Shown: positions 16,284-35,712 of the stretch, one piece after another | How the letters are laid out: the number at the start of each line of letters is the position of its first letter | How positions within the stretch are numbered: the first letter of the stretch is position 1 | NCBI RefSeq assembly: GCF_003991155.1 | Contig: NZ_CP031293.1 | DNA length: 64,000 nt | Strand: one strand, 5' to 3' | Origin: Escherichia coli | Lineage (GTDB): Bacteria; Pseudomonadota; Gammaproteobacteria; Enterobacterales; Enterobacteriaceae | Notes under the pieces: generated by a model | Seen by the model: only the letters and a program-made list of their open reading frames with translations | Told to the model about the DNA's origin: nothing | Databases searched by the model: none | Position numbers and translations under genes: made by a program

Positions 16284-16384
16284 ATAAATTCCTAAAGTTG
16301 TTTTCTTGCGATTTTGTCTCTCTCTAACCCGCATAAATACTGGTAGCATCTGCATTCAACTGGATAAAATTACAGGGATGCAGA

Positions 16385-19300: not shown

Positions 19301-20185
19301 TCGCTGATACTTGATTTCGGCCCACGTCAATTCACCGTTGGTTTTGACGAAACCTTAAAACCTGTAGTGCGCGATGCAAACGGCAAGGTCCTGAAAGATT
19401 TACCCAAACCAAATCAGAGCGATGATAAAACACTGGCAACTGACGCCGTTAACCTCTTTAAACAATTGAAGAAAGATGTTCGTGCTATCGCCAGCCAGCA
19501 AATTACCCGTCTGGAACAGGCTATGTGCCAGCGCAGACGCTGGACGACAGAGCAGTTCCGCCTGTTCATGGTGGAGCACCCACTGGTACGTCACTTAACC
19601 CGACGACTGTTATGGGGGGTATATACTGAGGAAAACACGCTGATTGCCTGCTTCCGGGTCGCAGAAGACAGCACTTACAGCGATATGCAGGATGAGCTAT
19701 TCACGCTACCAGCAGGAAACATCGGTATTCCGCATATGCTGGAAATCCCCCCTGAATCTGCCGCTGCATTCAGGCAAATTTACGCTGATTACGAACTGCT
19801 CCCCCCCTTCCAACAGCTCGATCGTGGTAGTTATCGTCTTGCTGATAATGAACGGAATACCCACGAACTGACACGCTGGAGCGGACGCCTTTGCCAGGCA
19901 GGGCGCATTGTCGGGCTAGAGCGCCGAGGTTGGCAACGTCTGGAAGAAAGCGGCAGCGTCTATGCGATGCGCAAATCTACTCCTTATGGCGATCTCGAAC
20001 TTGAAACAGAACATTTTTCATTAATTTATGGCGAAACAGGTTATGGCGACCTGTTACCTGTTGAAAGCGTAAAAATCACCTCGCCAGATGATCGCTACGG
20101 TAAACAACCTTTACTTACTTTTTCCATGCTCGACGACATCACCGCCAGCGAGCTGATTAACGACATTGAATCATTGTTTGATTAA
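16385..20185 (+). CDS. molR: Large MolR-like protein, paralog 1 (N-terminal WGR-like domain, long C-terminal region)
   Basis: 1266 aa. N-terminus HKFWAVEQQGNELHISWGKVGTNGQ fits the WGR pattern; C-terminal half shares long near-identical segments with the next gene. Symbol assignment is tentative. Confidence 0.75.
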   Translation: MRHFIYQDKKSHKFWAVEQQGNELHISWGKVGTNGQNQVKSFADAAAAAKAELKLIAEKTKKGYVENASANVHIPPITKATPEVKTPPVSQNKHPWLADDAVIPVTDDINRFAFPHRSRPREINYLHKDGQIWQRIANNTRAYDPDNNYRSYPENWQQAFAELQSRILDNQQTGSAQSDAALLWSFWNSYSADELVDDLVIRCGLESAVEIALFALQLKYKPVKGAVTTIIPPGHKAESLPSWHQRLCHHLSLASEDEWQRCVNKVLTAIPTLSPARQPFAALLLPERPDIANAMALRYADQNVPAMTWLRLVVTDDAALTAAEKYDFPPLYRDFRAYLAMLLANNGVSGVSRILTEFVEEHSDNPTYLFERISETEDLVKWLWKTNHPDAIQILILGVIGKKKHLEYLSKACQKHPAAAIAAYATLLAIHEDAQWRNALVKLVTVTPELVCDVIPWVNAKAAGILSECRPQPVAEECEYATVDMLPELFVSPPWMTKEKKKNTPVFDLPVLPVPSVSDVTPEIAKRLTRTYLVTRFQQIAQQQATKQTLFTDLPPIKKASWEKHLIPLTPEQQILWHLGFEKWRESGEKIYEKIPAPQSAVDALLRFDFPALNAEFVQYHNNAYKSWNLIALCYLPGQQAISFLNQIVKEDNYSDEGNILAIFGSAAIPAFMTCLQRDPRRLCFFPFFLGVSDLALPMAQQLQKKMSYDDARNWLTDYPRHAAAGLLPVALGKHCQNREYARQALRLLVNLNQRETIEEIARGYNQPDVLAALATLFDSDPLEEYPAKIAPLPGFYQFTLWRRPRLKSNNLPLSDDAMRHLGTMLSFPRDITAYAGLDIIREIFTRESLADFGWDLYTAWMESGAPAKENWAFTSLGILGNNDTARKLTPLIRAWPGESQHKRAVSGLDVLASIGSDIALMLLNGIAQKIKFKALQEHARDKINMVAENRGLTMAELEDRLAPDLGLDINGSLILDFGPRQFTVGFDETLKPVVRDANGKVLKDLPKPNQSDDKTLATDAVNLFKQLKKDVRAIASQQITRLEQAMCQRRRWTTEQFRLFMVEHPLVRHLTRRLLWGVYTEENTLIACFRVAEDSTYSDMQDELFTLPAGNIGIPHMLEIPPESAAAFRQIYADYELLPPFQQLDRGSYRLADNERNTHELTRWSGRLCQAGRIVGLERRGWQRLEESGSVYAMRKSTPYGDLELETEHFSLIYGETGYGDLLPVESVKITSPDDRYGKQPLLTFSMLDDITASELINDIESLFD

Positions 20186-20197
20186 AAGGATTTAGCA

Positions 20198-23100
20198 ATG
20201 AAAACCTATATTTATCAGGACGAAAAATCACATAAATTCTGGGCAGTGGAGCAACAGGGAAACGAGCTGCATATTAGTTGGGGCAAAGTCAGTACCAACG
20301 GGCAAAGCCAGGTAAAAAGCTTTGCTGATGCTGCGGCGGCGGAAAAAGCGGAACTGAGGCTGATTGCGGAGAAGATGAAGAAGGGGTATGTGGAGCAAGC
20401 GAAGGATAATTCTTTGCAACCTTCCCAAACGGTAACGGATTCTCTCAAGGTAGCGGCCTTATCCACCATTATTCAGGAACAACCCTTTTGCGTAGCAGAA
20501 GCCCGTGTGGCTGACAAAAATACAGATGATGTTTTACCGTGGCTGGCGAAAGATATTGCTGTCGTTTTTCCGCCCGAAGTTGTACACACCACGTTAAGCC
20601 ATCGCCGCTTTCCCGGAGTTCCTGTTCAGCAAGCAGACAACTTGACCCAGTTACGTCGCTTAGCCTGTAGCGTGTCGCAACGGGATAATAAAACAGCCAC
20701 ATTTGACTTCAGCGCCTGTTCTTTAGTATGGCAAAACACCGTCGCCCAGGCGATCAGTCAGATCGACTGCCTGAAAACAACACAGTTACCATCACCAGTA
20801 ATGGCTGTACTCACGGCACTTGAAATGAAATGCACAAGATATAAAGTGCGTGAGGATGTTATGGATCAGATCATTCAGGAAGGCGGTCTGGAATATGCTA
20901 CTGATGTAATAATACACCTTCAACAGATTGATATTGAATGGAATTATGCGAATAATATCATTATTATTCTGCCGTCTGGCATTGCACCTGATAACTTGCA
21001 GCAATATTCCAGTTTTGAATTACGCCTACGGAAACATTTATCACTGGCGGAAGAGTCTCTCTGGCAAAAATGTGCACAAAAACTTATTGCCGCAATTCCA
21101 CATATTCCAGAATGGCGGCAACCATTAATTGCTTTGTTATTACCCGAAAAACCAGAAATTGCACATGAAATTGCCCAGCGTCTACTGGGGAAAAAAAAAT
21201 TACCCTCGCTTGAGTGGCTAAAAATAGTGGCGACTGATGAGCACATTCTTGCCTCATTAGAAAAATATCACGAGCCATATGCCATTTTTGATGATTACTA
21301 TTGTGGTGCGATATGGTCAGCCACCGTATTACAGGAGCAAGGTGTTGCAGCCCTGCCCCGATTTGCTCCCTATGCCGCAAGTGACTACTGCGCCGATGTG
21401 TTGCGTCATATCAATCATCCGTTCGCATTAACACTGCTTATACGTGTAGCCGGGCATACTAAACGCTGTCACGATCGAATGACGAAAGCCTGCGCTGCGT
21501 TCCCACACGCAGCACTGGCAGCACTGGCGGAACTTCTAGTGCAAAAAGAAGAGAATAGTTGGCGCATTATGCTAATGACGATGCTTATCTCGCAACCAGC
21601 ACTGGCAGAACAGGTCATTCCCTGGCTTTCGACACCCGCAGCTGCAGTGCTGAAATCATGCCAGCAACAACTGACACAGCCATCAAACCATGCCAGCACC
21701 GATCTACTGCCGGCCATAGTAGTCTCCCCACCATGGCTTTCGAAAAAGAAAAAATCGTCGATTCCGGTGCTTGATTTAGCACCATTAGGCATTGAGCCAA
21801 TCAGTTATCTGACAGAAGAAATCAGTAATCAACTTTTGGCGAAATATATCTGGTATTCAAAACACATCACGGTTAGTCATGAAGAAAGTACTGCCAATCT
21901 GTTGGCAAGGATGGGTTTTCAACGACGGATCGCTGGTACATATATTAAAGCTCCCGAAGCGGTAGTTGAGGCATGGCTAAATGAAGATTATTCAACCTTA
22001 ATAAGTGAATTTAAGGTGTTTCATTCACCTACCGGGCATTATTGGCATTTGGGGATTTTGACAACATTGCCGCTGGAGAAAGCAATAAGAGCATGGAATG
22101 CCCTTACTCTATCTCCGCATACCGATACCGAATACGCCATGTTACATTTTGGACTCAAAGGATTACCTGGGTTAGTAAACTCACTTGCACGTTATCCACA
22201 GGAAGCCTTGCCCATAACGAATTACTTCGCAGCGAGTGAGCTGGCTCCTGCCGTCGCCCGCGCCTTCAACAAACTCAAAACCCTACGACAAGACGCCCGC
22301 ACCTGGCTGCTGAAATACCCGGAACACGCCATTACCGGCCTGCTACCTTCGGCGCTCGGCAAAGCCGGTGAAGCACAGGATAACGCCCGCGCTGCCTTGC
22401 GTATGCTTATCGAAAACGATCATCAGCCATTACTGCAAGAAATCGCCCGGCGTTATAACCAGCCGGAAGTAACAGATGCGGTGAACGCTATGCTTGCGCT
22501 CGATCCCTTAGATAATCACCCGACAAAAATCCCCACTCTTCCGGCCTTTTATCAGCCATCGATCTGGACCCGCCCGGTATTAAAAGCAAATGCCCAATCA
22601 CTGCCAGATAACGCCCTCCTCCACCTCGGTGAAATGCTCCGCTTCCCTCAGGAAGAGGCTCTGTATCCGGGATTATTGCAGGTGAAAGATGCCTGTACCG
22701 CCGACTCACTGGCTGAATTTGCCTGGGATCTGTTTACCGCCTGGCAGACCGCTGGCGCACCGTCGAAAGAAAGTTGGGCGTTCACTGCGTTAGGCGTTCT
22801 CGGTAACGATGACACCGCCCGCAAACTGACGCCATTAATCCGCGCCTGGCCTGGCGAATCTCAGCATAAACGTGCCACCGTTGGGTTGGATATTCTCGCT
22901 GCTATCGGCAGCGATATCGCCCTGATGCAGCTTAACGGCATCGCCCAGAAACTGAAATTCAAAGCATTACAGGAGCGAGCAAAAGAAAAAATTGCCGACA
23001 TTGCCGAAAGCCGCGAACTCACAGTGGCAGAACTTGAAGATCGGTTAGCACCGGATCTCGGTCTGGATGATAACGGTTCGCTGCTGCTGGATTTCGGGCC

Positions 23101-23992
23101 ACGGCAGTTCACCGTCAGCTTTGATGAAACCTTAAAACCGTTTGTGCGTGATGCTTCCGGCAGCCGCCTGAAAGACTTGCCTAAACCGAACAAAAGCGAT
23201 GATGAAACCCAAGCGAACGATGCAGTTAACCGCTACAAACTGTTGAAAAAAGATGCGCGTACCGTTGCCGCCCAGCAGGTAGCAAGGCTGGAATCCGCCA
23301 TGTGCCTACGCCGCCGCTGGTCGCCGGAAAACTTCCAGCTATTCCTGGTTGAGCATCCGCTGGTTCGCCACTTAACCCGCCGTCTGATTTGGGGCGTTTA
23401 TAGCACCGAAAACGAGCTACTGGCCTGTTTCCGGGTGGCAGAAGATAACAGCTACAGCACCGCTGACGATGATCTTTTCACCCTGCCGGAAGGCGATATC
23501 TCTATTGGTATTCCTCACGTTCTGGAAATATCACCGACGGATGCCGCCGCCTTTGGTCAGCTTTTTGCCGACTACGAACTTTTACCGCCGTTCCGTCAGC
23601 TCGACCGCAACAGTTATGCCCTGACTGAAGTCGAACGCAACGCCAGCGAACTAACCCGCTGGGCAGGCAGAAAATGCCCGAGCGGTCGGGTTATGGGGCT
23701 GTCGAATAAAGGCTGGGTGCGTGGTGAACCGCAGGACGGTGGCTGGATCGGCTGGATGATCAAACCTCTGGGCCGCTGGTCATTAATCATGGAAATCGAT
23801 GAAGGATTTGCAGTTGGTATGTCGCCAGCCGAACTCAGTGCCGAGCAACTCTTAAGCAAGCTGTGGCTATGGGAAGGCAAAGCAGAAAGCTATGGCTGGG
23901 GGAGTCATTCAACACAGGAAGCGCAGTTCTCCGCACTCGATGACATCACCGCCAGCGAGTTGATTAACGATATTGAAGCCCTGTTTGAATAA
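20198..23992 (+). CDS. Large MolR-like protein, paralog 2 (N-terminal WGR-like domain)
   Basis: 1264 aa; same N-terminal and C-terminal sequence blocks as paralog 1, separated from it by only 12 bp. Confidence 0.75.
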   Translation: MKTYIYQDEKSHKFWAVEQQGNELHISWGKVSTNGQSQVKSFADAAAAEKAELRLIAEKMKKGYVEQAKDNSLQPSQTVTDSLKVAALSTIIQEQPFCVAEARVADKNTDDVLPWLAKDIAVVFPPEVVHTTLSHRRFPGVPVQQADNLTQLRRLACSVSQRDNKTATFDFSACSLVWQNTVAQAISQIDCLKTTQLPSPVMAVLTALEMKCTRYKVREDVMDQIIQEGGLEYATDVIIHLQQIDIEWNYANNIIIILPSGIAPDNLQQYSSFELRLRKHLSLAEESLWQKCAQKLIAAIPHIPEWRQPLIALLLPEKPEIAHEIAQRLLGKKKLPSLEWLKIVATDEHILASLEKYHEPYAIFDDYYCGAIWSATVLQEQGVAALPRFAPYAASDYCADVLRHINHPFALTLLIRVAGHTKRCHDRMTKACAAFPHAALAALAELLVQKEENSWRIMLMTMLISQPALAEQVIPWLSTPAAAVLKSCQQQLTQPSNHASTDLLPAIVVSPPWLSKKKKSSIPVLDLAPLGIEPISYLTEEISNQLLAKYIWYSKHITVSHEESTANLLARMGFQRRIAGTYIKAPEAVVEAWLNEDYSTLISEFKVFHSPTGHYWHLGILTTLPLEKAIRAWNALTLSPHTDTEYAMLHFGLKGLPGLVNSLARYPQEALPITNYFAASELAPAVARAFNKLKTLRQDARTWLLKYPEHAITGLLPSALGKAGEAQDNARAALRMLIENDHQPLLQEIARRYNQPEVTDAVNAMLALDPLDNHPTKIPTLPAFYQPSIWTRPVLKANAQSLPDNALLHLGEMLRFPQEEALYPGLLQVKDACTADSLAEFAWDLFTAWQTAGAPSKESWAFTALGVLGNDDTARKLTPLIRAWPGESQHKRATVGLDILAAIGSDIALMQLNGIAQKLKFKALQERAKEKIADIAESRELTVAELEDRLAPDLGLDDNGSLLLDFGPRQFTVSFDETLKPFVRDASGSRLKDLPKPNKSDDETQANDAVNRYKLLKKDARTVAAQQVARLESAMCLRRRWSPENFQLFLVEHPLVRHLTRRLIWGVYSTENELLACFRVAEDNSYSTADDDLFTLPEGDISIGIPHVLEISPTDAAAFGQLFADYELLPPFRQLDRNSYALTEVERNASELTRWAGRKCPSGRVMGLSNKGWVRGEPQDGGWIGWMIKPLGRWSLIMEIDEGFAVGMSPAELSAEQLLSKLWLWEGKAESYGWGSHSTQEAQFSALDDITASELINDIEALFE

Positions 23993-24001
23993 GGAAAGAA
24001 C

Positions 24002-27000
24002 ATGGACAAGGAATTACCGTGGCTGGCGGATAACGCCCAACTGGAACTGAAATATAAAAAAGGCAAAACACCACTCAGCCATCGCAATTGGCCGGGAGAA
24101 CCGGTGCCTGTTATCACTGAAAGCCTCATCCAGACACTGGGTGATAAATTGCTACACATTGCTGAGAAGAAAAAAAACATTGTCTGGCGTTATGAAAATT
24201 TTTCACTGGAATGGCAGTCCGCCATCACGCAGGCCATCAACTTGATCGGCGAGCACAAACCCTCAGTTCCGGCCCGGACAATGGCGGCGCTAGCCTGTAT
24301 CGCGCAAAATGACAGCCAACAGTTGCTCGACGAAATCGTCCAACAAGAGGGACTGGAATATGCGACTGAGGTGGTGATTGCACGCCAGTTTATTGCACAG
24401 TGTTATGAGAGTGATCCTCTGCTAGTGACATTGCAGTATCAGAACGAGGATTATGGCTATGGTTATCGCTCAGAAACCTATAACGAATTCGATCTCCGAC
24501 TGCGTAAGCATCTCTCTCTGGCAGAGGAAAGCTGCTGGCAGCGTTGCGCCGACAAACTCATTGCCGCACTGCCAGGACTACCCCAAGTTCGCCGTCCTTT
24601 TATTGCGCTGATCCTCCCGGAAAAACCAGAAATCGCCAATGAGTTGGTAGGCCTTGAATGCCCGTGGACTCATTTTCATTCTAAGGAGTGGTTAAAAGTT
24701 GTTGCTACTGACCACAGGGCAGTGGGAAAACTCGAACGCTACTGGAGCCAGGATATATTTAGCGATCGCGAAGCCAGCTACATGTCGCATGAAAACCACT
24801 TCGGCTACGCGGCCTGCGCCGCCCTTTTGCGCGAACAAGGAATTGCAGCCGTTCCACGCCTCGCGATGTATGCCCATAAAGAAGATTGCGGCAGTCTGCT
24901 GGTACAAATTAACCATCCGCAGGTCATCCGTACCCTGCTGTTAGTTGCTGATAAAAATAAACCCAGCCTGCAACGTGTGGCTAAATACAGTAAAAACTTC
25001 CCCCATGCGACGCTTGCCGCACTGGCAGAGCTTCTGGCGTTAAAAGAACCGCCTGCACGCCCTGGTTATCCAATCATCGAAGACAAAAAGCTGCCTGCAC
25101 AGCAAAAAGCTCGAGATGAATACTGGCGTACGCTGTTACAAACGCTGATGGCATCGCAGCCACAACTGGCAGAAGAGGTGATGCCGTGGTTAAGTACTCA
25201 AGCCCAGGCAGTGCTGAATAGTTATTTATCGGCACCGCCCAAAACGGTTATTGATAGCACCGATAACATCCAAATGCCTGAAATCCTCGTTTCACCACCG
25301 TGGCGTAGTAAGAAAAAAATGACAGTTCCACGTCTTGATTTGGCACCGTTCGAATTAACGCCGCAAGTTTACTGGCAACCAGGCGAACGAGAGAGGCTTG
25401 CCGCCACTGAGTCTGCCCGTTATTTCAGCACGGAATCTCTTGCGGAACGCATGGAACAAAAAAGTGGACGAGTTGTATTACAGGAGCTGGGTTTTGGAGA
25501 TGATGTATGGCTGTTTTTGAATTATATACTCCCCGGAAAACTGGATGCTGCACGCAATTCACTCATTGTTCAGTGGCATTACTACCCAGGGCGGGTTGAA
25601 GAGATCATGAATGGCTGGAGCTCCCCGGAAGCTCAATTAGCAGAACAGGCGCTTCGCAACGGTCACGTAGAAGTGTTAATTAACATATGGGAAAATGACA
25701 GCTACTCACGCTATCGTCGGGAAAAGAGTATCTGGAACCTGTATTTATTGGCGCAGTTGCCGCGTGAGATGGCTTTGACTTTCTGGCTACGTATCAATGA
25801 GAAAAAGCATCTGTCTGCGGGTGAGGACTATTTTCTCAGTATCTTCGGATTGGATGCTCTACCAGGTCTGCTGTTGGCTTTTTCACATCGTCCAAAAGAA
25901 ACATTTCCATTAATTTTAAATTTCGGCGCAACAGAACTGGCCCTGCCCGTTGCCCGCGTCTGGCGACGTTTCGCGGCGCAGCGTGATCTGGCTCGCCAGT
26001 GGATTTTACATTGGCCGGAACATACAGCTACTGCACTTATCCCTCTTGTCTTCACCAAATCCAGCGATAATAGCGAAGCTGCATTACTTGCCCTGCGTTT
26101 ACTTTACGAACAGGGACATGGCGAATTACTGCAAACCGTGGCAAACCGCTGGCAGCATACAGATGTATGGCCTGCCCTGGAGCAATTACTTAAACAGGGT
26201 CCAATGGACATTTACCCGGCACGCATTCCCAAAGCCCCTGATTTCTGGCATCCGACAATGTGGTCCAGACCGAGACTTATCACGAATAATCAGCCTGTTA
26301 CCGATGATGCTCTGGAAATTATCGGCGACATGCTGCGCTTTACCCAGGGCGGACGTTTTTATTGCGGGCTGGAACAACTGAAAACGTTCTGCCAGCCACA
26401 AACGCTGGCAGCTTTTGCCTGGGATCTCTTCACCGCGTGGCAACAAGTTGGCGCCCCCGCAAAAGACAACTGGGCATTTCTGGCGTTAAGTCTCTTCGGT
26501 GACGAAAGCACGGCTCGGGATCTGACAACACAGATCCTCGCCTGGCCACAGGAAGGCAAATCTGCCCGTGCCGTCAGTGGCCTGAACATACTTACTCAGA
26601 TGAATAATGATATGGCGCTGATACAGCTGCATCATATATCGCAACGGGCGAAATCCCGCCCCTTACGTGATAACGCGGCGGAATTTCTTCAGGTGGTCGC
26701 AGAAAATCGTAGGCTAAGCCAGGAACAGTTAGCGGACAGATTAGTCCCAACACTGGGTCTTGATGATCCGCAGGCGTTGAGTTTTGATTTTGGTCCACGG
26801 CAATTTACCGTTCGCTTTGATGAAAACCTTAACCCGGTTATCTTTGATCAGCAAAACGTTCGCCAGAAAAGCGTTCCCCGGTTGCGCGCCGATGACGATC
26901 AACTGAAAGCGCCCGAGGCACTGGCCCGACTAAAAGGGCTAAAAAAAGATGCGACTCAGGTGAGCAAAAACCTGCTCCCGCGTCTTGAAACGGCCCTACG

Positions 27001-27634
27001 CACCACCCGACGCTGGTCGCTGGCAGATTTTCATACTCTGTTTGTTAATCATCCCTTTACCCGCCTGGTTACTCAGCGATTAATATGGGGCGTGTATCCG
27101 GCAAATGAACCGCGTCGTTTACTCAACGCCTTTCGTGTGGCCGCAGAGGGGGAGTTCTGCAATGCACAAGATGAGCCCATTGACCTGCCTGCGGATGCTT
27201 TGATTGGCATTGCCCACCCGTTAGAAATGACAGCAGAAATGCGCAGTGAATTTGCACAGCTTTTTGCCGATTACGAAATTATGCCGCCTTTTCGCCAGTT
27301 GACGAGGCGCACAGTGCTGCTCACGCCTGACGAGTCAGCCAGTAACAGCCTGACTCGCTGGGAAGGTAAATCCGCTACCGTTGGGCAACTTATGGGAATG
27401 CGATACAAAGGCTGGGAGTCAGGCTATGAGGACGCATTTGTCTATGACCTGGGCGAGTACCGGCTGGTCCTTAAGTTTTCATCCGGTTTTAACCACTACA
27501 ATGTTGATAGCAAAGCGCTAATGAGCTTCCGTTCTCTTCATGTATACCGTGACAATAAATCTGTCACTTTTGCCGAACTTGATGTGTTTGATTTGAGTGA
27601 AGCGTTAAGCGCACCCGACGTCATTTTCCATTAA
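24002..27634 (+). CDS. yehI: Large YehI protein (shares the C-terminal region of the two upstream paralogs, lacks the WGR-like N-terminus)
   Basis: 1210 aa; shared blocks such as DLFTAWQ..GAPAKDNWAF and FGPRQFTV; 9 bp downstream of paralog 2. Confidence 0.85.
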   Translation: MDKELPWLADNAQLELKYKKGKTPLSHRNWPGEPVPVITESLIQTLGDKLLHIAEKKKNIVWRYENFSLEWQSAITQAINLIGEHKPSVPARTMAALACIAQNDSQQLLDEIVQQEGLEYATEVVIARQFIAQCYESDPLLVTLQYQNEDYGYGYRSETYNEFDLRLRKHLSLAEESCWQRCADKLIAALPGLPQVRRPFIALILPEKPEIANELVGLECPWTHFHSKEWLKVVATDHRAVGKLERYWSQDIFSDREASYMSHENHFGYAACAALLREQGIAAVPRLAMYAHKEDCGSLLVQINHPQVIRTLLLVADKNKPSLQRVAKYSKNFPHATLAALAELLALKEPPARPGYPIIEDKKLPAQQKARDEYWRTLLQTLMASQPQLAEEVMPWLSTQAQAVLNSYLSAPPKTVIDSTDNIQMPEILVSPPWRSKKKMTVPRLDLAPFELTPQVYWQPGERERLAATESARYFSTESLAERMEQKSGRVVLQELGFGDDVWLFLNYILPGKLDAARNSLIVQWHYYPGRVEEIMNGWSSPEAQLAEQALRNGHVEVLINIWENDSYSRYRREKSIWNLYLLAQLPREMALTFWLRINEKKHLSAGEDYFLSIFGLDALPGLLLAFSHRPKETFPLILNFGATELALPVARVWRRFAAQRDLARQWILHWPEHTATALIPLVFTKSSDNSEAALLALRLLYEQGHGELLQTVANRWQHTDVWPALEQLLKQGPMDIYPARIPKAPDFWHPTMWSRPRLITNNQPVTDDALEIIGDMLRFTQGGRFYCGLEQLKTFCQPQTLAAFAWDLFTAWQQVGAPAKDNWAFLALSLFGDESTARDLTTQILAWPQEGKSARAVSGLNILTQMNNDMALIQLHHISQRAKSRPLRDNAAEFLQVVAENRRLSQEQLADRLVPTLGLDDPQALSFDFGPRQFTVRFDENLNPVIFDQQNVRQKSVPRLRADDDQLKAPEALARLKGLKKDATQVSKNLLPRLETALRTTRRWSLADFHTLFVNHPFTRLVTQRLIWGVYPANEPRRLLNAFRVAAEGEFCNAQDEPIDLPADALIGIAHPLEMTAEMRSEFAQLFADYEIMPPFRQLTRRTVLLTPDESASNSLTRWEGKSATVGQLMGMRYKGWESGYEDAFVYDLGEYRLVLKFSSGFNHYNVDSKALMSFRSLHVYRDNKSVTFAELDVFDLSEALSAPDVIFH

Positions 27635-27694
27635 ACCACAGCGGGCAGTGATGCGACTGCCCGTTATTAACACGACCTGCCACCGGGAAAAGCG

Positions 27695-28015
27695 ATGATC
27701 GTGCAAAAAGAGCTGGTCGCTATTTATGATTATGAAGTCCCTGTACCTGAAGATCCGTTTTCCTTCAGACTTGAGATCCATAAATGCTCTGAATTATTTA
27801 CAGGTTCCATCTACCGGCTGGAGCGATTCCGGCTACATCCAACATTTCATCAACGTGATCGAGAGGATATCGACCCGCTAATAAATGATGCGTTGATTTA
27901 TATAAGAGATGAGTTTATTGATGAGCGAAAATTACGGGGCGAATCACCAGAAATGGTAATAGCCATTTTTAATCGTGAACTACAGAATATATTCAACCAA
28001 GAAATAGAAAAATAG
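27695..28015 (+). CDS. yehK: Small protein YehK
   Basis: 106 aa ORF directly after yehI. Confidence 0.8.
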   Translation: MIVQKELVAIYDYEVPVPEDPFSFRLEIHKCSELFTGSIYRLERFRLHPTFHQRDREDIDPLINDALIYIRDEFIDERKLRGESPEMVIAIFNRELQNIFNQEIEK

Positions 28016-28453
28016 CTTTATTAAAGAGGGAGACGGTATTCCCCCTTAGATGCGTTTCAATTTGCCCGTTACTTCAACAAATCAATCAACCGTAACAGAG
28101 CCACTAATAACTCCAGTACGGCAATGAGCACAGTTAACTTTTGTGTCAGCGTGTCCATCCGCTCTCCTTATTAAGGAGCGCAACACCAGCACCTTACCCT
28201 TACACTGCCTGTCGATACTGGTTTACGTATGTTGGACCACGATGTTGCACTCCGGATCAGGGCACTACCTGCGGCACCACCCGTCCGGTAGCCATGACTT
28301 GAAATGGGTTCGATCCGGCGCAACGTCCCAACAGTCAGGATTATAAATCTCATTATCTTAATTGCAACGGGGTCCACCGATGGTTATAATTCGTTCGTTG
28401 GAACACGATGTTGCACAGGCTGCGGCGTTGGGCCTGAAAATAGTAAATAAAAG

Positions 28454-28481
28454 AACCTGCCTCACCAGCAGGTTTTTTTAT
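28454..28481 (+). terminator. Rho-independent terminator in the yehK-yehL intergenic region
   Basis: aacctgc / gcaggtt stem, ctcacca loop, then tttttta. Confidence 0.55.
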
Positions 28482-28590
28482 TTACTGTGATCTGCTTTCC
28501 AGATATTTTCCGCTCAAACAACTAATGCGCCAAACATTTATTGCGCGTAAAATATCGTTTATTTCATTAATACATTTCAGGGATGAATAT

Positions 28591-29679
28591 ATGTCACCGC
28601 AGAATAATCATCTGCAGCGTCCGCCTGCCGCTGTGTTATACGCCGATGAACTGGCAAAATTAAAACAAAATGATCACGCACCTTGCCCGCCCGGTTGGCA
28701 GTTAAGTTTGCCTGCGGCCCGTGCTTTTATCCTTGGCGACGAAGCGCAAAATATTAGCCGTAAAGTCGTGATCAGTCCCTCCGCTGTCGAACGCATGTTA
28801 GTCACTCTCGCTACCGGGCGCGGTTTGATGTTGGTGGGGGAACCTGGCACCGCAAAATCGCTCCTGTCTGAATTACTGGCAACCGCTATTAGCGGCGATG
28901 CCGGGTTAACCATCCAGGGCGGCGCATCTACCACCGAAGATCAAATCAAGTACGGCTGGAACTACGCTCTGCTTATCAATCATGGTCCATCAACGGAAGC
29001 GCTGGTCCCTGCCCCGCTTTACCAGGGAATGCGCGACGGCAAAATCGTCCGTTTTGAAGAAATAACGCGTACACCGCTGGAAGTGCAGGACTGTCTGTTA
29101 GGTATGCTTTCTGACAGGGTGATGACGGTGCCGGAACTCACCGGTGAAGCCAGTCAGCTCTATGCGCGGGAAGGCTTTAATATTATTGCCACTGCCAATA
29201 CCCGCGATCGCGGCGTCAATGAAATGAGTGCTGCGCTAAAGCGTCGTTTCGATTTTGAAACTGTCTTTCCGATTATGGATTTCGCTCAGGAGCTGGAGCT
29301 TGTCGCCAGTGCTTCGGCGCGTTTGCTGGCCCATAGCGGTATTCCGCATAAAGTGCCTGACGCGGTACTGGAGTTACTGGTCCGCACCTTCCGCGATCTG
29401 CGTGCCAACGGCGAAAAGAAAACGTCAATGGATACACTAACAGCGATTATGTCCACCGCTGAAGCCGTGAACGTGGCCCACGCTGTGGGCGTCCGCGCCT
29501 GGTTTTTAGCGAATCGCGCAGGTGAGCCAGCCGATCTGGTGGACTGTATTGCCGGAACCATCGTCAAAGATAACGAAGAAGATCGCGCTCGTCTGCGCCG
29601 TTACTTCGAACAGCGAGTCGCCACACATAAAGAAGCTCACTGGCAGGCTTATTATCAAGCCCGCCACCGCCTGCCGTGA
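28591..29679 (+). CDS. yehL: MoxR-like AAA+ ATPase YehL
   Basis: Start trimmed to MSPQNNH, 362 aa; Walker A GEPGTAKS. Confidence 0.9.
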   Translation: MSPQNNHLQRPPAAVLYADELAKLKQNDHAPCPPGWQLSLPAARAFILGDEAQNISRKVVISPSAVERMLVTLATGRGLMLVGEPGTAKSLLSELLATAISGDAGLTIQGGASTTEDQIKYGWNYALLINHGPSTEALVPAPLYQGMRDGKIVRFEEITRTPLEVQDCLLGMLSDRVMTVPELTGEASQLYAREGFNIIATANTRDRGVNEMSAALKRRFDFETVFPIMDFAQELELVASASARLLAHSGIPHKVPDAVLELLVRTFRDLRANGEKKTSMDTLTAIMSTAEAVNVAHAVGVRAWFLANRAGEPADLVDCIAGTIVKDNEEDRARLRRYFEQRVATHKEAHWQAYYQARHRLP

Positions 29680-29689
29680 GGAAAGATGC

Positions 29690-31969
29690 ATGAGCGAGCC
29701 GTTAATTGTCGGCATCCGGCATCATAGCCCGGCCTGCGCCCGGCTGGTGAAATCGTTAATCGAAAGCCAGCGGCCACGATACGTGTTGATTGAAGGCCCG
29801 GCTGATTTTAATGACCGGGTAGACGAACTGTTTTTAGCCCACCAGCTTCCGGTAGCTATTTACAGTTATTGCCAGTATCAGGACGGTACGGCCCCCGGGC
29901 GCGGTGCCTGGACGCCATTTGCTGAATTTTCACCGGAGTGGCAGGCGCTACAAGCCGCACGTCGTATTCAGGCACAAACTTACTTCATCGATTTACCTTG
30001 CTGGGCGCAGAGTGAAGAAGATGACGATTCGCCTGATACGCAAGAGGAAAGCCAGACCTTGCTGCTGCGTGCCACCCGCATGGATAACAGCGACACCCTG
30101 TGGGATCACTTGTTCGAAGATGAAAGCCAGCAAACTGCATTACCCTCTGCGCTGGCGCACTATTTTGCACAACTGCGGGGCGATTCCCCCGGAGATGCTC
30201 TCAATCGTCAGCGCGAAGCCTTTATGGCCCGCTGGATTGCATGGGCGATGCAGCAAAACAATGGCGACGTGTTAGTCGTCTGCGGCGGCTGGCATGCTCC
30301 GGCACTGGCAAAGATGTGGCGCGAATACACGCAGGAAATTAACACGCCGGAATTGCCCTCGCTGGCAGATGTCGTTACAGGTTGTTATCTCACCCCCTAC
30401 AGTGAAAAGCGCCTTGATGTGCTGGCAGGATACCTTTCCGGTATGCCTGCCCCGGTCTGGCAAAACTGGTGCTGGCGGTGGGGCTTGCAGCAGGCAGGTG
30501 AACAACTGCTGAAAACGGTTCTTACCCGTTTGCGCCAGCACCACTTGCCTGCTTCAACAGCGGATATGGCTGCCGCTCATCTGCATGCGATGGCACTGGC
30601 ACAGTTGCGCGGTCATACACTACCGTTACGCACTGACTGGCTGGATGCCATAGCAGGCTCGCTGATTAAAGAAGCCCTGAATGCGCCGTTGCCGTGGAGC
30701 TATCGCGGCGTTATTCATCCCGATACCGATCCGATTCTGCTAACGTTGATAGACACATTAGCGGGTGACGGATTCGGTAAACTTGCCCCTTCTACGCCAC
30801 AACCGCCTCTGCCAAAAGATGTCACCTGCGAACTGGAACGTACCGCAATCTCTCTTCCGGCGGAGCTTACCTTAAATCGCTTTAACCCCAATGGACTAGC
30901 GCAAAGTCAGGTGTTACATCGGCTGGCAATACTGGAGATCCCAGGGATTGTACGCCAGCAGGGAAGCACACTGACACTTGCAGGCAACGGTGAAGAACGC
31001 TGGAAATTAACCCGCCCGCTTAGCCAGCATGCGGCATTGATTGAGGCCGCCTGCTTTGGTGCAACACTCCAGGAAGCCGCACGCCATAAATTAGAAGCCG
31101 ATATGCTGGACGCGGGTGGAATCGGCAGTATCACCACATGTCTTAGCCAGGCGGCGTTAGCGGGTCTGGCGTCCTTCAGTCAGCAATTACTGGAACAACT
31201 CACATTATTAATCGCCCAAGAAAATCAGTTTGCCGAAATGGGCCAGGCGCTGGAAGTGCTTTACGCCTTGTGGCAGCTCGATGAAATCAGCGGTATGCAA
31301 GGCGCGCAGATATTACAAACGACGTTATGCGCGGCTATCGATCGCACGCTGTGGCTGTGTGAATCTAACGGCAGACCGGATGAAAAGGAGTTTCACGCTC
31401 ACCTGCATAGCTGGCAAGCGCTTTGCCATATCCTGCGCGATCTACATAGCGGCGTTAATTTACCCGGCGTTTCTCTTTCTGCGGCGGTAGCCTTACTGGA
31501 GCGACGCAGTCAGGCGATTCATGCCCCGGCGCTGGATCGCGGCGCGGCTCTTGGCGCACTAATGCGTCTGGAACATCCCAACGCCAGTGCCGAAGCGGCG
31601 CTGACGATGCTGGCGCAGTTATCCCCGGCACAATCCGGCGAGGCGCTGCACGGTTTGCTGGCGCTGGCCCGCCATCAACTGGCCTGTCAGCTGGCATTTA
31701 TCGCCGGTTTCAGTAGTCATTTAAATCAACTGAGTGACGACGATTTTATTAACGCCCTGCCCGATTTACGCGCGGCGATGGCCTGGCTACCACCACGAGA
31801 ACGCGGGACGCTGGCGCATCAGGTGCTTGAGCATTACCAGCTCGCACAGCTTCCCATTTCAGCGCTGCAAATGCCGTTGCATTGTCCACCGCAAGCCATT
31901 GCACATCATCAACAACTCGAACAGCAGGCACTGGCATCGCTGCAACACTGGGGAGTTTTCCATGTCTGA
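29690..31969 (+). CDS. yehM: Large uncharacterised protein YehM
   Basis: Start trimmed to MSEPLIVGIRHHSPA, 759 aa; begins 11 bp after the yehL stop. Confidence 0.85.
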   Translation: MSEPLIVGIRHHSPACARLVKSLIESQRPRYVLIEGPADFNDRVDELFLAHQLPVAIYSYCQYQDGTAPGRGAWTPFAEFSPEWQALQAARRIQAQTYFIDLPCWAQSEEDDDSPDTQEESQTLLLRATRMDNSDTLWDHLFEDESQQTALPSALAHYFAQLRGDSPGDALNRQREAFMARWIAWAMQQNNGDVLVVCGGWHAPALAKMWREYTQEINTPELPSLADVVTGCYLTPYSEKRLDVLAGYLSGMPAPVWQNWCWRWGLQQAGEQLLKTVLTRLRQHHLPASTADMAAAHLHAMALAQLRGHTLPLRTDWLDAIAGSLIKEALNAPLPWSYRGVIHPDTDPILLTLIDTLAGDGFGKLAPSTPQPPLPKDVTCELERTAISLPAELTLNRFNPNGLAQSQVLHRLAILEIPGIVRQQGSTLTLAGNGEERWKLTRPLSQHAALIEAACFGATLQEAARHKLEADMLDAGGIGSITTCLSQAALAGLASFSQQLLEQLTLLIAQENQFAEMGQALEVLYALWQLDEISGMQGAQILQTTLCAAIDRTLWLCESNGRPDEKEFHAHLHSWQALCHILRDLHSGVNLPGVSLSAAVALLERRSQAIHAPALDRGAALGALMRLEHPNASAEAALTMLAQLSPAQSGEALHGLLALARHQLACQLAFIAGFSSHLNQLSDDDFINALPDLRAAMAWLPPRERGTLAHQVLEHYQLAQLPISALQMPLHCPPQAIAHHQQLEQQALASLQHWGVFHV

Positions 31970-33098
31970 ACTGAACGATCTTCTGACCACCTGTGAGCTA
32001 CAACGCTGGCGATTAATTCTTGGCGAAGCGGCAGAAACGACCCTTTGTGGGCTGGATGACAATGCCCGGCAGATAGACCACGCGCTGGAGTGGCTGTATG
32101 GGCGCGATCCTGAACGGCTCCAGCGTGGTGAACGCTCTGGTGGATTAGGTGGCTCAAATCTCACCACCCCTGAGTGGATCAACAGTATTCACACACTGTT
32201 TCCGCAACAGGTGATTGAGCGACTGGAAAGCGATGCCGTACTGCGCTACGGCATTGAAGATGTGGTGACGAATCTCGACGTACTGGAACGTATGCAGCCT
32301 TCTGAAAGCCTGCTACGCGCCGTTTTGCACACCAAACATCTGATGAATCCCGAAGTACTGGCTGCCGCCCGCCAGATAGTGCGCCAGGTTGTTGAAGAAA
32401 TTATGGCTCGACTGGCAAAGGAAGTTCGTCAGGCTTTTTCTGGTGTCCGCGATCGCCGTCGCCGCTCATTTATTCCACTGGCGCGAAACTTTGATTTCAA
32501 AAGTACTCTGCGCGCCAACCTGCAACACTGGCACCCGCAACACGGCAAGTTGTATATCGAATCCCCCCGCTTTAACAGCCGCATTAAACGCCAAAGCGAA
32601 CAATGGCAACTGGTCTTACTGGTTGATCAAAGCGGATCAATGGTGGACTCGGTGATCCACTCCGCAGTGATGGCGGCCTGTTTATGGCAGTTACCCGGTA
32701 TTCGTACCCATCTGGTGGCGTTTGACACCAGCGTCGTCGATCTCACGGCAGACGTTGCTGATCCGGTAGAATTATTAATGAAAGTGCAATTAGGCGGCGG
32801 GACCAATATCGCCAGTGCTGTGGAATATGGTCGGCAACTTATTGAACAACCAGCGAAAAGCGTCATCATCCTCGTGAGCGATTTTTATGAAGGGGGTTCA
32901 TCATCATTGCTGACGCATCAGGTGAAAAAGTGTGTCCAGAGCGGCATCAAAGTGCTGGGGCTGGCAGCGCTCGACAGCACCGCAACGCCTTGCTATGACC
33001 GCGATATGGCCCAGGCGCTGGTTAATGTTGGCGCACAAATAGCCGCAATGACACCGGGTGAACTGGCTACCTGGCTTGCGGAGAATTTGCAGTCATGA
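31962..33098 (+). CDS. yehP: von Willebrand factor A domain protein YehP
   Basis: Start trimmed to MSELNDLL, 378 aa; MIDAS motif DQSGS; start overlaps the yehM stop by 8 nt. Confidence 0.9.
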   Translation: MSELNDLLTTCELQRWRLILGEAAETTLCGLDDNARQIDHALEWLYGRDPERLQRGERSGGLGGSNLTTPEWINSIHTLFPQQVIERLESDAVLRYGIEDVVTNLDVLERMQPSESLLRAVLHTKHLMNPEVLAAARQIVRQVVEEIMARLAKEVRQAFSGVRDRRRRSFIPLARNFDFKSTLRANLQHWHPQHGKLYIESPRFNSRIKRQSEQWQLVLLVDQSGSMVDSVIHSAVMAACLWQLPGIRTHLVAFDTSVVDLTADVADPVELLMKVQLGGGTNIASAVEYGRQLIEQPAKSVIILVSDFYEGGSSSLLTHQVKKCVQSGIKVLGLAALDSTATPCYDRDMAQALVNVGAQIAAMTPGELATWLAENLQS

Positions 33099-35095
33099 AT
33101 TCACTACGTCCGGAATTATTAGAACTCACGCCGCAGGCCCTGACGGCGTTAAGCAATGCCGGTTTTGTTAAGCGCAGTCTTAAGGAACTGGAAAATGGCA
33201 ACGTCCCGGAAATCAGCCATGAGAACGGCGCTTTAATCGCCACCTTCAGTGACGGTGTCCGTACCCAACTGGCGAGCGGTCAGGCACTGAAAGAGGCTCA
33301 GTGCAGCTGCGGGGCCAACGGCATGTGCCGCCATCGCGTGATGCTGGTTTTAAGTTATCAGCGACTTTGCGCCACCACCCAGCCTACGGAAAAAGAAGAA
33401 GAGTGGGATCCGGCAATCTGGCTGGAAGAACTGGCTACCCTGCCCGATGCCACCCGCAAACGCGCACAGACACTGGTCGCTAAAGGCATCACCATTGAGT
33501 TGTTCTGTACGCCGGGCGAAATTCCCTCTGCCCGCTTACCGATGAGCGATGTACGTTTTTATTCCCGCAGCAGCATTCGTTTCGCACGCTGTGATTGTAT
33601 TGAAGGCACGCTGTGTGAACACGTAGCACTGGCTGTGCAGGCCTTCGTCGAGGCCAAAACTCAGCAAGCGGAATTTACTCATTTAATCTGGCAGATGCGC
33701 AGCGAACACGTCACATCATCTGACGATCCGTTTGCCAACGATGAGGGCGACGCGTGTCGTCAATATGTTCAGCAATTAAGCCAGGCGTTATGGCTTGGCG
33801 GCATCAGCCAGCCGCTTATTCATTACGAGGCTGCTTTCAGCCGCGCGCAGCAAGCGGCGGAACGCTGCAACTGGCGCTGGGTAAGTGAATCACTACGACA
33901 GCTACGGGCAAGCGTTGATGCCTTCCACGCCCGCGCCAGTCACTATCATGCCGGAGAATGCTTACGTCAGCTTGCGGCATTAAACAGTCGATTAAATTGC
34001 GCACAAGAGATGGCGCGGCGCGACAGTGTTGGTGAAGTTCCTCCTGTGCCGTGGCGCACGGTCGTTGGCGCTGGCATTGCCGGAGAAGCAAAGCTTGATC
34101 ATCTGCGGCTGGTGTCTTTAGGTATGCGTTGCTGGCAGGATATTGAACAGTATGGTTTACGCATCTGGTTCACCGATCCCGACACCGGCAGTATTTTGCA
34201 CCTTTCGCGTAGTTGGCCGAGAAGCGAACAAGAAAACGCTCCCGCGGCAAAACGTCGGCTGTTTAGTTTTCAGGCTGGCGCACTGGCAGGTGGGCAAATT
34301 GTTTCACAAGCAGCGCGTCGCAGTGCCGAAGGCGAACTGCTGTTCGCGACCCGTAACCGCTTGAGTAGTGTTGTGCCGCTGTCGCCAGATGCCTGGCAAA
34401 TGTTGAGCGCGCCGTTGCGCCAGCCGGGCATTGTGGCTTTGCGGGAATATTTACGCCAGCGTCCCCCCGCCTGCATACGGCCTCTTAATCAGGTGGATAA
34501 CTTATTTATTCTGCCGGTCGCTGAGTGTATTTCACTCGGTTGGGATAGCAGCCGCCAGACGCTGGATGCGGAGGTAATCAGCGGCGAAGGTGAAGATAAC
34601 GTGCTGACATTATCCCTACCAGCCTCTGCCTGTTCGCCCTTTGCTGTTGAACGCATGGCAGCTCTGTTACAACAAACAGAGGACCCCGTGAGTCTGGTTT
34701 CTGGCTTTGTCAGCTTTGTAGAGGGGCAATTGACACTGGAACCACGGGTGATGATGACAAAAACCCGCGCCTGGGCGCTGGACGCAGAAACTGCGCCTGT
34801 GGCACCGCTACCTTCTGCCAGCGTTCTGCCTGTGCCGTCTACCGCTCATCAGTTGCTGATGCGCTGCCAGGCGTTACTTATTCAACTGCTCCATAACGGC
34901 TGGCGCTATCAGGAACAGAGTGCTATTGGTCAGGCAGAGTTGCTGGCGAATGACCTCACCGCGGTGGGTTTTTATCGGCTGGCACATGTGTTGGCACAAT
35001 TTCGTAATACAGAAAGCGAGGCACGGGTAGAAGCAATGAATAACGGTGTTTTGATTTGCGAACAATTATTCCCCATGCTTCAGCAACAAGGATGA
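33095..35095 (+). CDS. yehQ: YehQ, protein with two SWIM-type zinc-finger motifs
   Basis: Two CxCx5CxH motifs (CSCGANGMCRH and CDCIEGTLCEH); ATGA start/stop overlap with yehP. Start position is uncertain. Confidence 0.8.
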   Translation: MNSLRPELLELTPQALTALSNAGFVKRSLKELENGNVPEISHENGALIATFSDGVRTQLASGQALKEAQCSCGANGMCRHRVMLVLSYQRLCATTQPTEKEEEWDPAIWLEELATLPDATRKRAQTLVAKGITIELFCTPGEIPSARLPMSDVRFYSRSSIRFARCDCIEGTLCEHVALAVQAFVEAKTQQAEFTHLIWQMRSEHVTSSDDPFANDEGDACRQYVQQLSQALWLGGISQPLIHYEAAFSRAQQAAERCNWRWVSESLRQLRASVDAFHARASHYHAGECLRQLAALNSRLNCAQEMARRDSVGEVPPVPWRTVVGAGIAGEAKLDHLRLVSLGMRCWQDIEQYGLRIWFTDPDTGSILHLSRSWPRSEQENAPAAKRRLFSFQAGALAGGQIVSQAARRSAEGELLFATRNRLSSVVPLSPDAWQMLSAPLRQPGIVALREYLRQRPPACIRPLNQVDNLFILPVAECISLGWDSSRQTLDAEVISGEGEDNVLTLSLPASACSPFAVERMAALLQQTEDPVSLVSGFVSFVEGQLTLEPRVMMTKTRAWALDAETAPVAPLPSASVLPVPSTAHQLLMRCQALLIQLLHNGWRYQEQSAIGQAELLANDLTAVGFYRLAHVLAQFRNTESEARVEAMNNGVLICEQLFPMLQQQG

Positions 35096-35219
35096 AATAG
35101 TGCTTTTTACTAAGAGTTCTACTCCAGTTCCGGACTGCTCACGCCACAGTATTAGGCATATCCTATATAGCCCCTGGTGAGAGTCACCAGTTCCTTGATT
35201 AAATAAAATGGAGTTTTAC

Positions 35220-35681
35220 ATGAAGGCTTTCAATAAGCTGTTTTCCCTTGTGGTAGCATCTGTTCTGGTTTTCTCTCTTGCTGGCTGCGGTGACAAAGAA
35301 GAATCGAAGAAATTCAGCGCCAATCTGAACGGCACTGAAATTGCCATTACCTATGTCTACAAAGGTGACAAGGTGCTTAAGCAATCTTCTGAAACCAAAA
35401 TTCAATTTGCCTCCATTGGTGCAACCACCAAAGAAGATGCCGCCAGGACACTTGAGCCGTTAAGCGCCAAATACAAAAACATCGCGGGTGTTGAAGAAAA
35501 ATTAACCTATACCGATACCTACGCGCAGGAAAACGTGACTATTGATATGGAAAAAGTGGATTTTAAAGCCCTGCAGGGTATTTCAGGAATCAACGTTTCT
35601 GCTGAAGATGCCAAAAAAGGTATCACTATGGCGCAAATGGAACTGGTGATGAAAGCCGCTGGTTTTAAAGAAGTGAAATAA
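35220..35681 (+). CDS. yehR: Lipoprotein YehR
   Basis: Start trimmed to MKAFNKLFSLVVASVLVFSLAGC (lipobox), 153 aa. Confidence 0.9.
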   Translation: MKAFNKLFSLVVASVLVFSLAGCGDKEESKKFSANLNGTEIAITYVYKGDKVLKQSSETKIQFASIGATTKEDAARTLEPLSAKYKNIAGVEEKLTYTDTYAQENVTIDMEKVDFKALQGISGINVSAEDAKKGITMAQMELVMKAAGFKEVK

Positions 35682-35687
35682 TCTGTC

Positions 35688-35712
35688 GGCGGCCATGTTT
35701 CGCATGGCCGCC
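35688..35712. terminator. Strong GC hairpin between convergent yehR and yehS
   Basis: ggcggccatg / catggccgcc 10-bp stem with tttcg loop. Confidence 0.65.

Follow-up and report, generated by a model that had tools for sequence, protein, structure and literature searches.

We analysed the yehLMPQ genes in a 64,000-nucleotide (nt) stretch of the Escherichia coli chromosome (RefSeq assembly GCF_003991155.1, contig NZ_CP031293.1), referred to here as the window, and found that these four genes and the large DUF4132 genes that precede them make up a single five-component cassette (16385-35095) centred on a MoxR-type AAA+ ATPase and a von Willebrand factor A (VWA) protein. The explanation that we favour, at a rough probability of 45%, is that the cassette encodes an ATP-driven remodelling or processing machine which is induced by DNA damage and acts on DNA-associated substrates. 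The order [DUF4132 x1-3]-YehL-YehM-YehP-YehQ is conserved across loci and is therefore indicative of five components. A damage-inducible machine was ranked first because the regulons to which the DUF4132 genes appear to be tied fit the WGR, SWIM and RPA/HIN-like OB content of the predicted proteins.

Gene layout of the cassette

The gene order in the window is metG, three DUF4132 genes, yehK, yehL, yehM, yehP, yehQ, and yehR. Four open reading frames (ORFs) on the + strand were found exactly where a preliminary description, made from the sequence alone, had placed them, and RefSeq annotates them identically in E. coli genomes of 100% identity, among which are 2016C-3878 and WP2-W18-ESBL-08. 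These are yehL (28591-29679; 362 amino acids (aa)), encoding a MoxR-family AAA+ ATPase of the AAA_5 type as the predicted motor; yehM (29690-31969; 759 aa), encoding a DUF5682 protein; yehP (31962-33098; 378 aa), encoding a CoxE-type VWA protein with a complete metal ion-dependent adhesion site (MIDAS) as the predicted adaptor of the motor; and yehQ (33095-35095; 666 aa), encoding a protein with two SWIM zinc fingers, helical bundles, and tandem OB-like beta domains. The overlaps of 8 nt between yehM and yehP and of 4 nt (ATGA) between yehP and yehQ had been given correctly, but the 11 bp given for yehL/yehM is start minus end and the true gap is 10 nt. A single operon with coupled translation, as had been claimed, is supported. 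The proposed four-gene unit stands as far as the genes are real and coupled; however, the unit comprises five gene families, the DUF4132 genes at 16385-27634 having been missed.

The first of these, a molR-type paralogue (16385-20185, + strand; 1266 aa), consists of a WGR domain (Pfam, 1.8e-18, residues 5-69), a long helical region, and a DUF4132 domain (5.5e-51, residues 1000-1183); its annotation likewise reads DUF4132 domain-containing protein. The second (20198-23992, + strand; 1264 aa) follows after a 12-nt gap and is 44% identical to the first over its full length; from this alignment and a PHROG match at residues 2-76 shared by the two, we infer that its N-terminus is also of the WGR type. 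The third, yehI (24002-27634, + strand; 1210 aa), starts after a further 9 nt, carries DUF4132 (4.5e-47) at 33-38% identity to the other two, and gave no Pfam match to a WGR domain. The three tandem paralogues are mutually 33-44% identical, with WGR on the first two. Across the loci described below, 61 of the 100 long DUF4132 ORFs have WGR. The best-conserved part of DUF4132 proteins is the final ∼400 residues, where numerous charged positions are invariant, and a PDB sequence search with DUF4132 proteins returned a match to the WGR domain only. The small annotated ORF yehK (27695-28015, + strand; 106 aa) starts 60 nt after yehI and is probably co-transcribed with it; no yehK homologue was found in 80 loci from other taxa, placing this Escherichia-specific gene outside the conserved cassette.

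Distribution across bacteria

An alignment scan with YehM, one genome per species, gave at least 570 species loci, of which 80 were kept from Gamma- and Betaproteobacteria, Myxococcota, many Actinobacteria, and one metagenome-assembled genome of Thermoanaerobaculia. Six-frame ORFs of the loci were searched with the E. coli proteins, and gene order was counted over 82 loci from Pseudomonadota, Actinomycetota, Myxococcota, and Acidobacteriota, with a Bacillota plasmid in addition. The co-occurrence check suggested in the preliminary description was strongly positive: YehL-YehM-YehP-YehQ are encoded in this order on one strand in 78 of the 82 loci, mostly overlapping or nearly so, with approximate median junctions of -4, -37, and -13 nt. 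The four exceptions were two loci at contig ends and two without a detectable YehQ. One to three large DUF4132 genes (usually WGR-DUF4132) lie directly upstream on the same strand in 69 of the 82 loci; in four (three Burkholderia, one Labilithrix) DUF4132 is downstream or opposite, and in five, two of which are cut at yehL, it was not detected. The cassette is conserved in at least five bacterial phyla, and the order and tight junctions of yehLMPQ across other taxa are far beyond chance. A similarity search with YehQ, by comparison, returned almost only Escherichia and Klebsiella sequences.

Outside the cassette, the loci have different neighbourhoods in Serratia, Variovorax, and Luteimonas. 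All five genes are retained in a deep-branching Proteus lineage, at 28% identity in YehM, and on a plasmid of Bacillus mycoides, and a mobilizable Iodobacter plasmid carries the cassette adjoining a type I restriction-modification system and insertion sequence elements. From these neighbourhoods and copies, the system is a mobile five-family cassette, which in some genomes is found on plasmids and chromids.

Such mobility and patchy distribution would also be expected of an anti-phage or anti-plasmid MoxR-VWA conflict system, the reading put forward in the preliminary description. Here, the WGR-DUF4132 proteins and YehQ would sense the nucleic acid or protein of an invader and the MoxR-VWA switch would release YehM as an effector, possibly with growth arrest. 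The varied neighbourhoods, the plasmid and chromid copies, the restriction-modification neighbour in Iodobacter, and the enrichment of loci in Actinobacteria and Myxococcota favour this reading; against it, the neighbourhoods inspected were mostly housekeeping. In E. coli, moreover, 5200 of 5426 complete genomes (96%) have the four genes at one fixed chromosomal site, with metG on one side and yehR on the other. With the comparisons given below, we consider a conflict system possible but doubtful.

Two further arrangements were observed. A plasmid of Hymenobacter sp. HDW8 (Bacteroidota; L088, 4183-12422) encodes, in order, a DUF5691 protein (1009 aa), an AAA ATPase, a 203-aa ORF, DUF5682, and VWA, with a PDDEXK nuclease gene as neighbour; DUF5691 takes the place of the SWIM and DUF4132 partners, for neither of which a recognisable gene was found in this variant. 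Alignment of the DUF5691 protein with the YehQ profile by hhalign gave no relationship, and it was rejected as a YehQ relative. On a plasmid of Rhodococcus sp. USK13 (L091, 9127-10224), a short DUF4132 gene occurs on its own, without MoxR, VWA, DUF5682, or SWIM genes; a Wadjet (JetABCD) locus is ∼2 kb away. The DUF4132 operon reported in Deinococcus consists of two genes only (PMC8533742). On the evidence of the Rhodococcus gene and this two-gene operon, DUF4132 proteins may also work outside the cassette.

The predicted motor and adaptor, YehL and YehP

YehL matches Pfam AAA_5 (2.6e-34) and has the Walker A motif GEPGTAKS, noted earlier, at residues 83-90. This motif, the acidic Walker B region (153-157), N203, R205/R207, and R268/R271 are at least 95% conserved in 81 sequences, so YehL has every sequence feature expected of a working MoxR-type AAA+ ATPase. 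The closest solved sequences in a PDB search were the AAA modules of midasin (E 6.6e-10) and a MoxR protein, and the Pfam match to bpMoxR was marginal (0.0024). In midasin/Rea1, an AAA_5 ring likewise works together with a MIDAS domain, so that factors are stripped from a nucleoprotein particle; unlike YehL and YehP, midasin is a single giant eukaryotic polypeptide with six AAA modules, and its substrates are pre-60S assembly factors.

YehP matches the whole VWA_CoxE model of Pfam (1-222/222; 5.5e-72) and keeps the CoxE-type N-terminal helical domain, in which R15-W16-R17-L18 is conserved. The MIDAS motif DQSGS, which had been recognised in the preliminary description, stands at residues 222-226, and the MIDAS residues D222, S224, S226, T256, and D307 are at least 95% conserved; a PDB sequence search with YehP gave no match. 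As the VWA gene is in the same operon as yehL in 80 of 82 loci, the earlier assignment of YehL and YehP as a MoxR-type AAA+/VWA pair is supported. In 79 of 80 loci, YehP homologues are 371-402 aa long and carry no additional domain (the one remaining is a 226-aa partial sequence); the only fusions are to YehM. Full-length YehM-YehP fusion proteins exist elsewhere (P0175, P0230, P0263, P0267) and represent several 50%-identity clusters, which points to a physical association of the two proteins. We also observed that positions 32820-32835 of the window (yehP codons 287-292) read GTG GAA TAT GGT CGG C, where a synonymous G-to-A change weakens a Shine-Dalgarno-like GGAG stimulator; for this reason, frameshifting in yehP of the window strain may be lower.

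The pair invites comparison with assembly or cofactor-insertion chaperones. In the CoxD-CoxE, NorQ-NorD, and CbbQ-CbbO pairs and in the Mg/Co chelatases (BchI-BchD-BchH, CobS-CobT-CobN), an AAA_5-type motor and a MIDAS VWA adaptor act on a large partner; by analogy with these, the cassette could mature or activate the DUF4132 proteins or an unlinked enzyme. Membership of YehP in the VWA_CoxE family, the AAA_5 domain that YehL shares with CoxD, NorQ, CbbQ, and CobS, its weak matches to GvpN and cobaltochelatase/porphyrin families, and the combination of AAA+, VWA, and a ∼1200-aa subunit, which recalls BchI-BchD-BchH, are in line with this idea. So are the historical label of MolR in the literature, "molybdate metabolism regulator", and the general description of MoxR proteins as maturation chaperones (PMC3893208). 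Nevertheless, genes for client enzymes (e.g., coxMSL, nor, cbb) are linked to those pairs, whereas no client enzyme or cofactor-biosynthesis gene is conserved beside the cassette in any of the 82 loci. The DUF5682, SWIM-OB, and WGR-DUF4132 partners are unrelated to CoxF, the NorD client, Rubisco, or CobN/BchH, DUF4132 being without Pfam similarity to CobN/BchH, and in the Deinococcus study the molybdenum-cofactor genes were unchanged (PMC8533742). As a maturation role would also leave the WGR/SWIM/OB content and the damage regulons unexplained, we regard it as unlikely.

Predicted folds of YehM and YehQ

The profile hidden Markov model and structure-prediction searches that had been proposed for YehM and YehQ gave DUF5682 (Pfam, 5.5e-98) and a hydrolase fold for the former, and weak SWIM matches and OB folds for the latter. 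YehM, therefore, is not merely the "large unknown protein" of the preliminary description. Its predicted structure has an N-terminal fold like that of TraB, TIKI, ChaN, and erythromycin esterases (EreA) at about residues 1-245, followed by a middle helical/beta-hairpin part and a C-terminal alpha-solenoid. The TIKI/TraB/PrgY/ChaN/erythromycin-esterase/RRSP/HopBA1 superfamily shares the predicted alpha/beta fold of the YehM N-terminus, but at 9-14% sequence identity, and YehM adds ∼500 residues of helical scaffold. Neither a PDB sequence search nor Pfam gave a match, in the latter case to a TraB/TIKI-type family. Nine residues (R10, H11, E35, H51, E83, D101, E143, R175, and H202) are invariant in 86 YehM sequences, which argues for a putative active site rather than a dead scaffold. 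All of these but E143 and R175 would be compatible with the catalytic His/Glu pattern of the superfamily. HopBA1 and RRSP, which are among the structural relatives of this domain, are toxin effectors, and this relationship would suit an effector role for YehM in a conflict system.

Both CxCx5CxH motifs reported earlier for YehQ are present (CSCGANGMCRH, residues 70-80; CDCIEGTLCEH, residues 166-176), with weak Pfam SWIM matches of 0.0049 and 0.24. The first finger is found in 72 of 73 homologues; the second is lacking in Actinobacteria. The structure model of YehQ (predicted local distance difference test score 92.6) has tandem OB-like beta domains, similar to those of RPA and HIN proteins, at about residues 331-560, and a PDB sequence search gave no match. 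WGR domains of PARPs bind DNA breaks, tandem OB folds of RPA, POT1, CST, and HIN proteins bind single- or double-stranded DNA, and SWIM is found in recombination factors (Shu2/SWS1) and SNF2 ATPases.

Link to DNA-damage regulons

A LexA (SOS) box-like site, AACTGGATAAAATTACAGGG, lies at 16358-16377 on the + strand, 7 nt upstream of the first DUF4132 gene. It has the form CTG-N10-CAG with 13 of 20 consensus matches, and three such sites occur in the 64 kb vs 0.43 expected from shuffles. DdrO is the damage repressor of Deinococcus. In D. radiodurans, DR2173 (WGR) and drA0165-drA0166 (DUF4132) show some of the strongest induction of any gene after depletion of DdrO (PMC8533742). For E. coli, a review table counts molR as LexA-regulated and gives its SOS box as known (PMC6590174). 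BglJ-RcsB is another activator of the molR promoter.

In Actinobacteria, we searched for the PafBC consensus tGTCgg(N10)tA(N3)T (PMC8635444). Exact matches numbered 17 on both strands of 36 loci; 16 of these are on the strand of the system where a DUF4132 or yehL gene begins, and ten lie within a strict upstream interval (binomial P 2.7e-13). At six sites the ATG follows 7-8 nt after the -10 element, i.e., the transcript would be leaderless. The Mycobacterium smegmatis PafBC paper mentions other MoxR/VWA proteins and not the cassette. From sequence and literature together, the DUF4132 genes appear to be tied to three unrelated DNA-damage regulons, namely those of LexA, DdrO, and PafBC.

Several observations weigh against a damage-inducible machine. 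At least one exact PafBC site was found in only 14 of the 36 actinobacterial loci. Cassettes outside E. coli showed no upstream enrichment of LexA-type (CTG-N10-CAG), Cheo-box, or Xanthomonas-type LexA motifs, and no LexA-type box precedes the cassette in the Serratia, Burkholderiales, and Xanthomonadales loci. The regulon link concerns the DUF4132 genes; yehLMPQ, set apart from these in E. coli by the 575 nt behind yehK, have no LexA-like box of their own in the window, and the region upstream of yehL is bound by H-NS (PMC3686432). The OB-fold matches of YehQ are weak by E-value (2e-3 to 3e-2) though their probabilities are high, and the invariant residues of YehM could not be mapped onto known catalytic positions. 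The TIKI/TraB/ChaN superfamily includes non-enzymes (ChaN binds haem), and OB, SWIM, and WGR domains can mediate protein-protein contacts as well. DNA-damage induction is typical also of prophage-related and toxin functions, and repair and conflict are therefore not separated by induction alone.

Variation, selection, and decay within E. coli

We compared the window strain with K-12 by the ratio of nonsynonymous to synonymous substitution rates (dN/dS). The values were 0.023 for yehL, 0.041 for yehP, and 0.012 for metG, and yehQ, yehM, and yehI were faster at 0.10-0.20. All cassette genes are under purifying selection (dN/dS 0.02-0.20), and the motor is as constrained as housekeeping genes. 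In terms of a conflict system, the parts that evolve fastest (YehQ, DUF4132, and YehM, vs 0.02-0.04 for the motor) would be the putative sensors, but purifying selection on all genes speaks against that reading. As a separate observation, dS between the two strains is 0.12-0.26 inside the yeh cluster, compared with 0.05-0.07 in the flanking yehR, yehS, btsR, and btsS and 0.11 in metG (window 28000-35700), an indication that the alleles of this segment are older or have recombined.

The first two DUF4132 genes (16385-23992) are highly variable, with at least 80% of the pair covered in only 824 of the 5426 E. coli genomes. In most genomes the place of the pair is taken by a single chimeric gene of ∼3.8 kb, which aligns in two pieces, at 90-95% identity, with the two ends of the pair; this resembles the product of unequal recombination between tandem DUF4132 paralogues. 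A study of sequence type 131 reported a resistance transposon inserted in the "DUF4132 region" (PMC9334617). Variation of the array in copy number, with chimeras, is a feature that a conflict system would share, as is frequent decay such as that in K-12.

In K-12 MG1655 (L086, 16101-17945), a GAG-to-TAG (amber) change at codon 615 of yehQ leaves 614 of 666 aa, with the last 52 residues lost, and molR is split into yehF (a WGR remnant) and the yehH pseudogene. K-12 thus carries a decayed copy of the cassette and is a poor test strain, and the lack of a phenotype in K-12 collections tells us little about an intact cassette. The decay raises the question of whether the cassette is a largely non-functional remnant of a horizontally acquired island, silenced by H-NS and slowly lost by E. 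coli. In agreement with such a remnant, truncated YehQ and YehM clusters are common in databases along with the disrupted K-12 genes, and yehL and yehM, upstream of which H-NS binds, rise only in hns/stpA mutants (PMC3686432). Yet the low dN/dS of all genes between two E. coli lineages, the retention of the four genes in nearly all complete E. coli genomes, and the maintenance of gene order and many invariant residues across the phyla argue strongly to the contrary, and we consider a mere remnant very improbable.

The 575-nt spacer between yehK and yehL contains, in the window, a type I toxin-antitoxin pair (28069-28158 on the - strand and 28404-28479 on the + strand). The OrzO-P antitoxin RNA (Rfam RF02083, 102.8 bits, E 7.9e-17) ends in a hairpin plus T-run at 28454-28480, and the other strand carries a 29-aa hydrophobic ORF, MDTLTQKLTVLIAVLELLVALLRLIDLLK, which we take to be ZorO-like and which is unannotated in the identical RefSeq genome. 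The K-12 spacer is 306 nt long, and the pair is probably absent from it, though that spacer itself was not searched.

Comparison with known systems

YehL is the type member of one of the seven MoxR subfamilies (Snider and Houry 2006, as cited in PMC3893208). In the YehL subfamily, as in most MoxR subfamilies, the AAA_5 ATPase is encoded beside a VWA protein. The subfamily has been defined by sequence and the neighbouring VWA gene only; the DUF5682, SWIM, and DUF4132 partners are undescribed in the literature searched. As the preliminary description had stated, no biochemical function is on record there, and we found no functional study of DUF5682, of yehLMPQ, or of DUF4132 with MoxR/SWIM.

In the MoxR-vWA ternary conflict systems (Kaur et al. 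2020, PMC7159879), too, a core of MoxR and CoxE-derived vWA has further partners that are obligatory, and the vWA component has a peptidase-like domain physically attached to it, the counterpart here being YehM, which in some cases is fused to YehP; Actinobacteria and Myxococcota are rich in both. The analogy of architecture, with a switch that restrains a peptidase (PMC7159879, PMC12839542), is a further argument for a conflict system. The third components that define the ternary systems (VMAP, iSTAND, FtsH, beta-propeller), however, are lacking here and the partners are DUF5682, SWIM-OB, and DUF4132; the vWA protein there has a variable C-terminal effector and YehP has none; and the cassette is core-like in E. 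coli. Neither SWIM nor YehL nor DUF4132 is mentioned in PMC7159879. None of the eight proteins matched any of the 5027 models of PADLOC-DB 2.0 (0 families at an E-value cutoff of 0.01), and an NCBIfam scan of all proteins gave sub-threshold matches only (GvpN, MadB, McrB, cobaltochelatase). The suggestion of a nucleoside triphosphate-dependent conflict system, then, fails on membership, and both the fixed chromosomal site and the DNA-damage regulatory evidence oppose it as well.

Matches to PHROGs, near-identical tiny families, could be taken for phage origin, and this was rejected because positions 1-2920 of the VT1-Sakai record AP000400.1, which begins in host yehP/yehQ, are the host flank of the prophage record. 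PHROGs 29006, 31592, 30700, 33984, and 20839 are E. coli host yehM, yehP, yehQ, and DUF4132 sequences. The apparent phage link thereby also drops out of the case for a conflict system. By its composition, the cassette would be a MoxR-VWA-centred multi-component system that is a member of no described system. The AAA+/VWA pairing is already known; in the literature searched, we found no account of an architecture with five components, of a TIKI/TraB-like fold in DUF5682, of OB folds in YehQ, or of a damage link through several regulons.

Proposed mechanism and significance

How the favoured damage-induced machine might operate can be sketched from its predicted parts. After damage, the WGR-DUF4132 proteins and YehQ would recognise an abnormal DNA structure, such as a break or single-stranded DNA, or a protein stuck on DNA. 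The MIDAS of YehP may grip an acidic residue of a partner or client, and the YehL ring would use ATP to pull on or remodel the client, as in other MoxR-VWA pairs. The solenoid of YehM could scaffold the complex, with its hydrolase domain cleaving the target at a peptide or ester bond. The tandem, divergent, and recombining DUF4132 paralogues would supply alternative recognition or client modules.

A more specific form of this proposal, to which we attach a rather small probability, is an unrecognised pathway of DNA repair or damage tolerance, in which a WGR/SWIM/OB-guided segregase would extract proteins trapped on damaged DNA and, through YehM, cleave them, the DUF4132 proteins serving as alternative lesion or client receptors. 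It would be an analogue of p97/Cdc48 with SPRTN/Wss1 in DNA-protein crosslink repair, where a damage-linked AAA+ unfoldase or segregase likewise works with adaptors, DNA-binding modules, and a (metallo)hydrolase. The components have no homology, and the analogy, which is our own, is one of function only.

E. coli has only two MoxR systems, and the yehLMPQ genes, after which a whole MoxR subfamily is named, encode one of them, yet they have been without a function for decades. The recognition of five components, two recognisable folds, three damage regulons, and a crippled K-12 copy turns them into a concrete, testable hypothesis, and the decay in K-12 may explain why K-12 screens were uninformative. 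Should the cassette be an immune system, it would represent a new class of MoxR-VWA systems. If it is a repair or tolerance machine, it would constitute a new pathway in E. coli, Klebsiella, Serratia, Burkholderia, Streptomyces-like actinomycetes, and myxobacteria.

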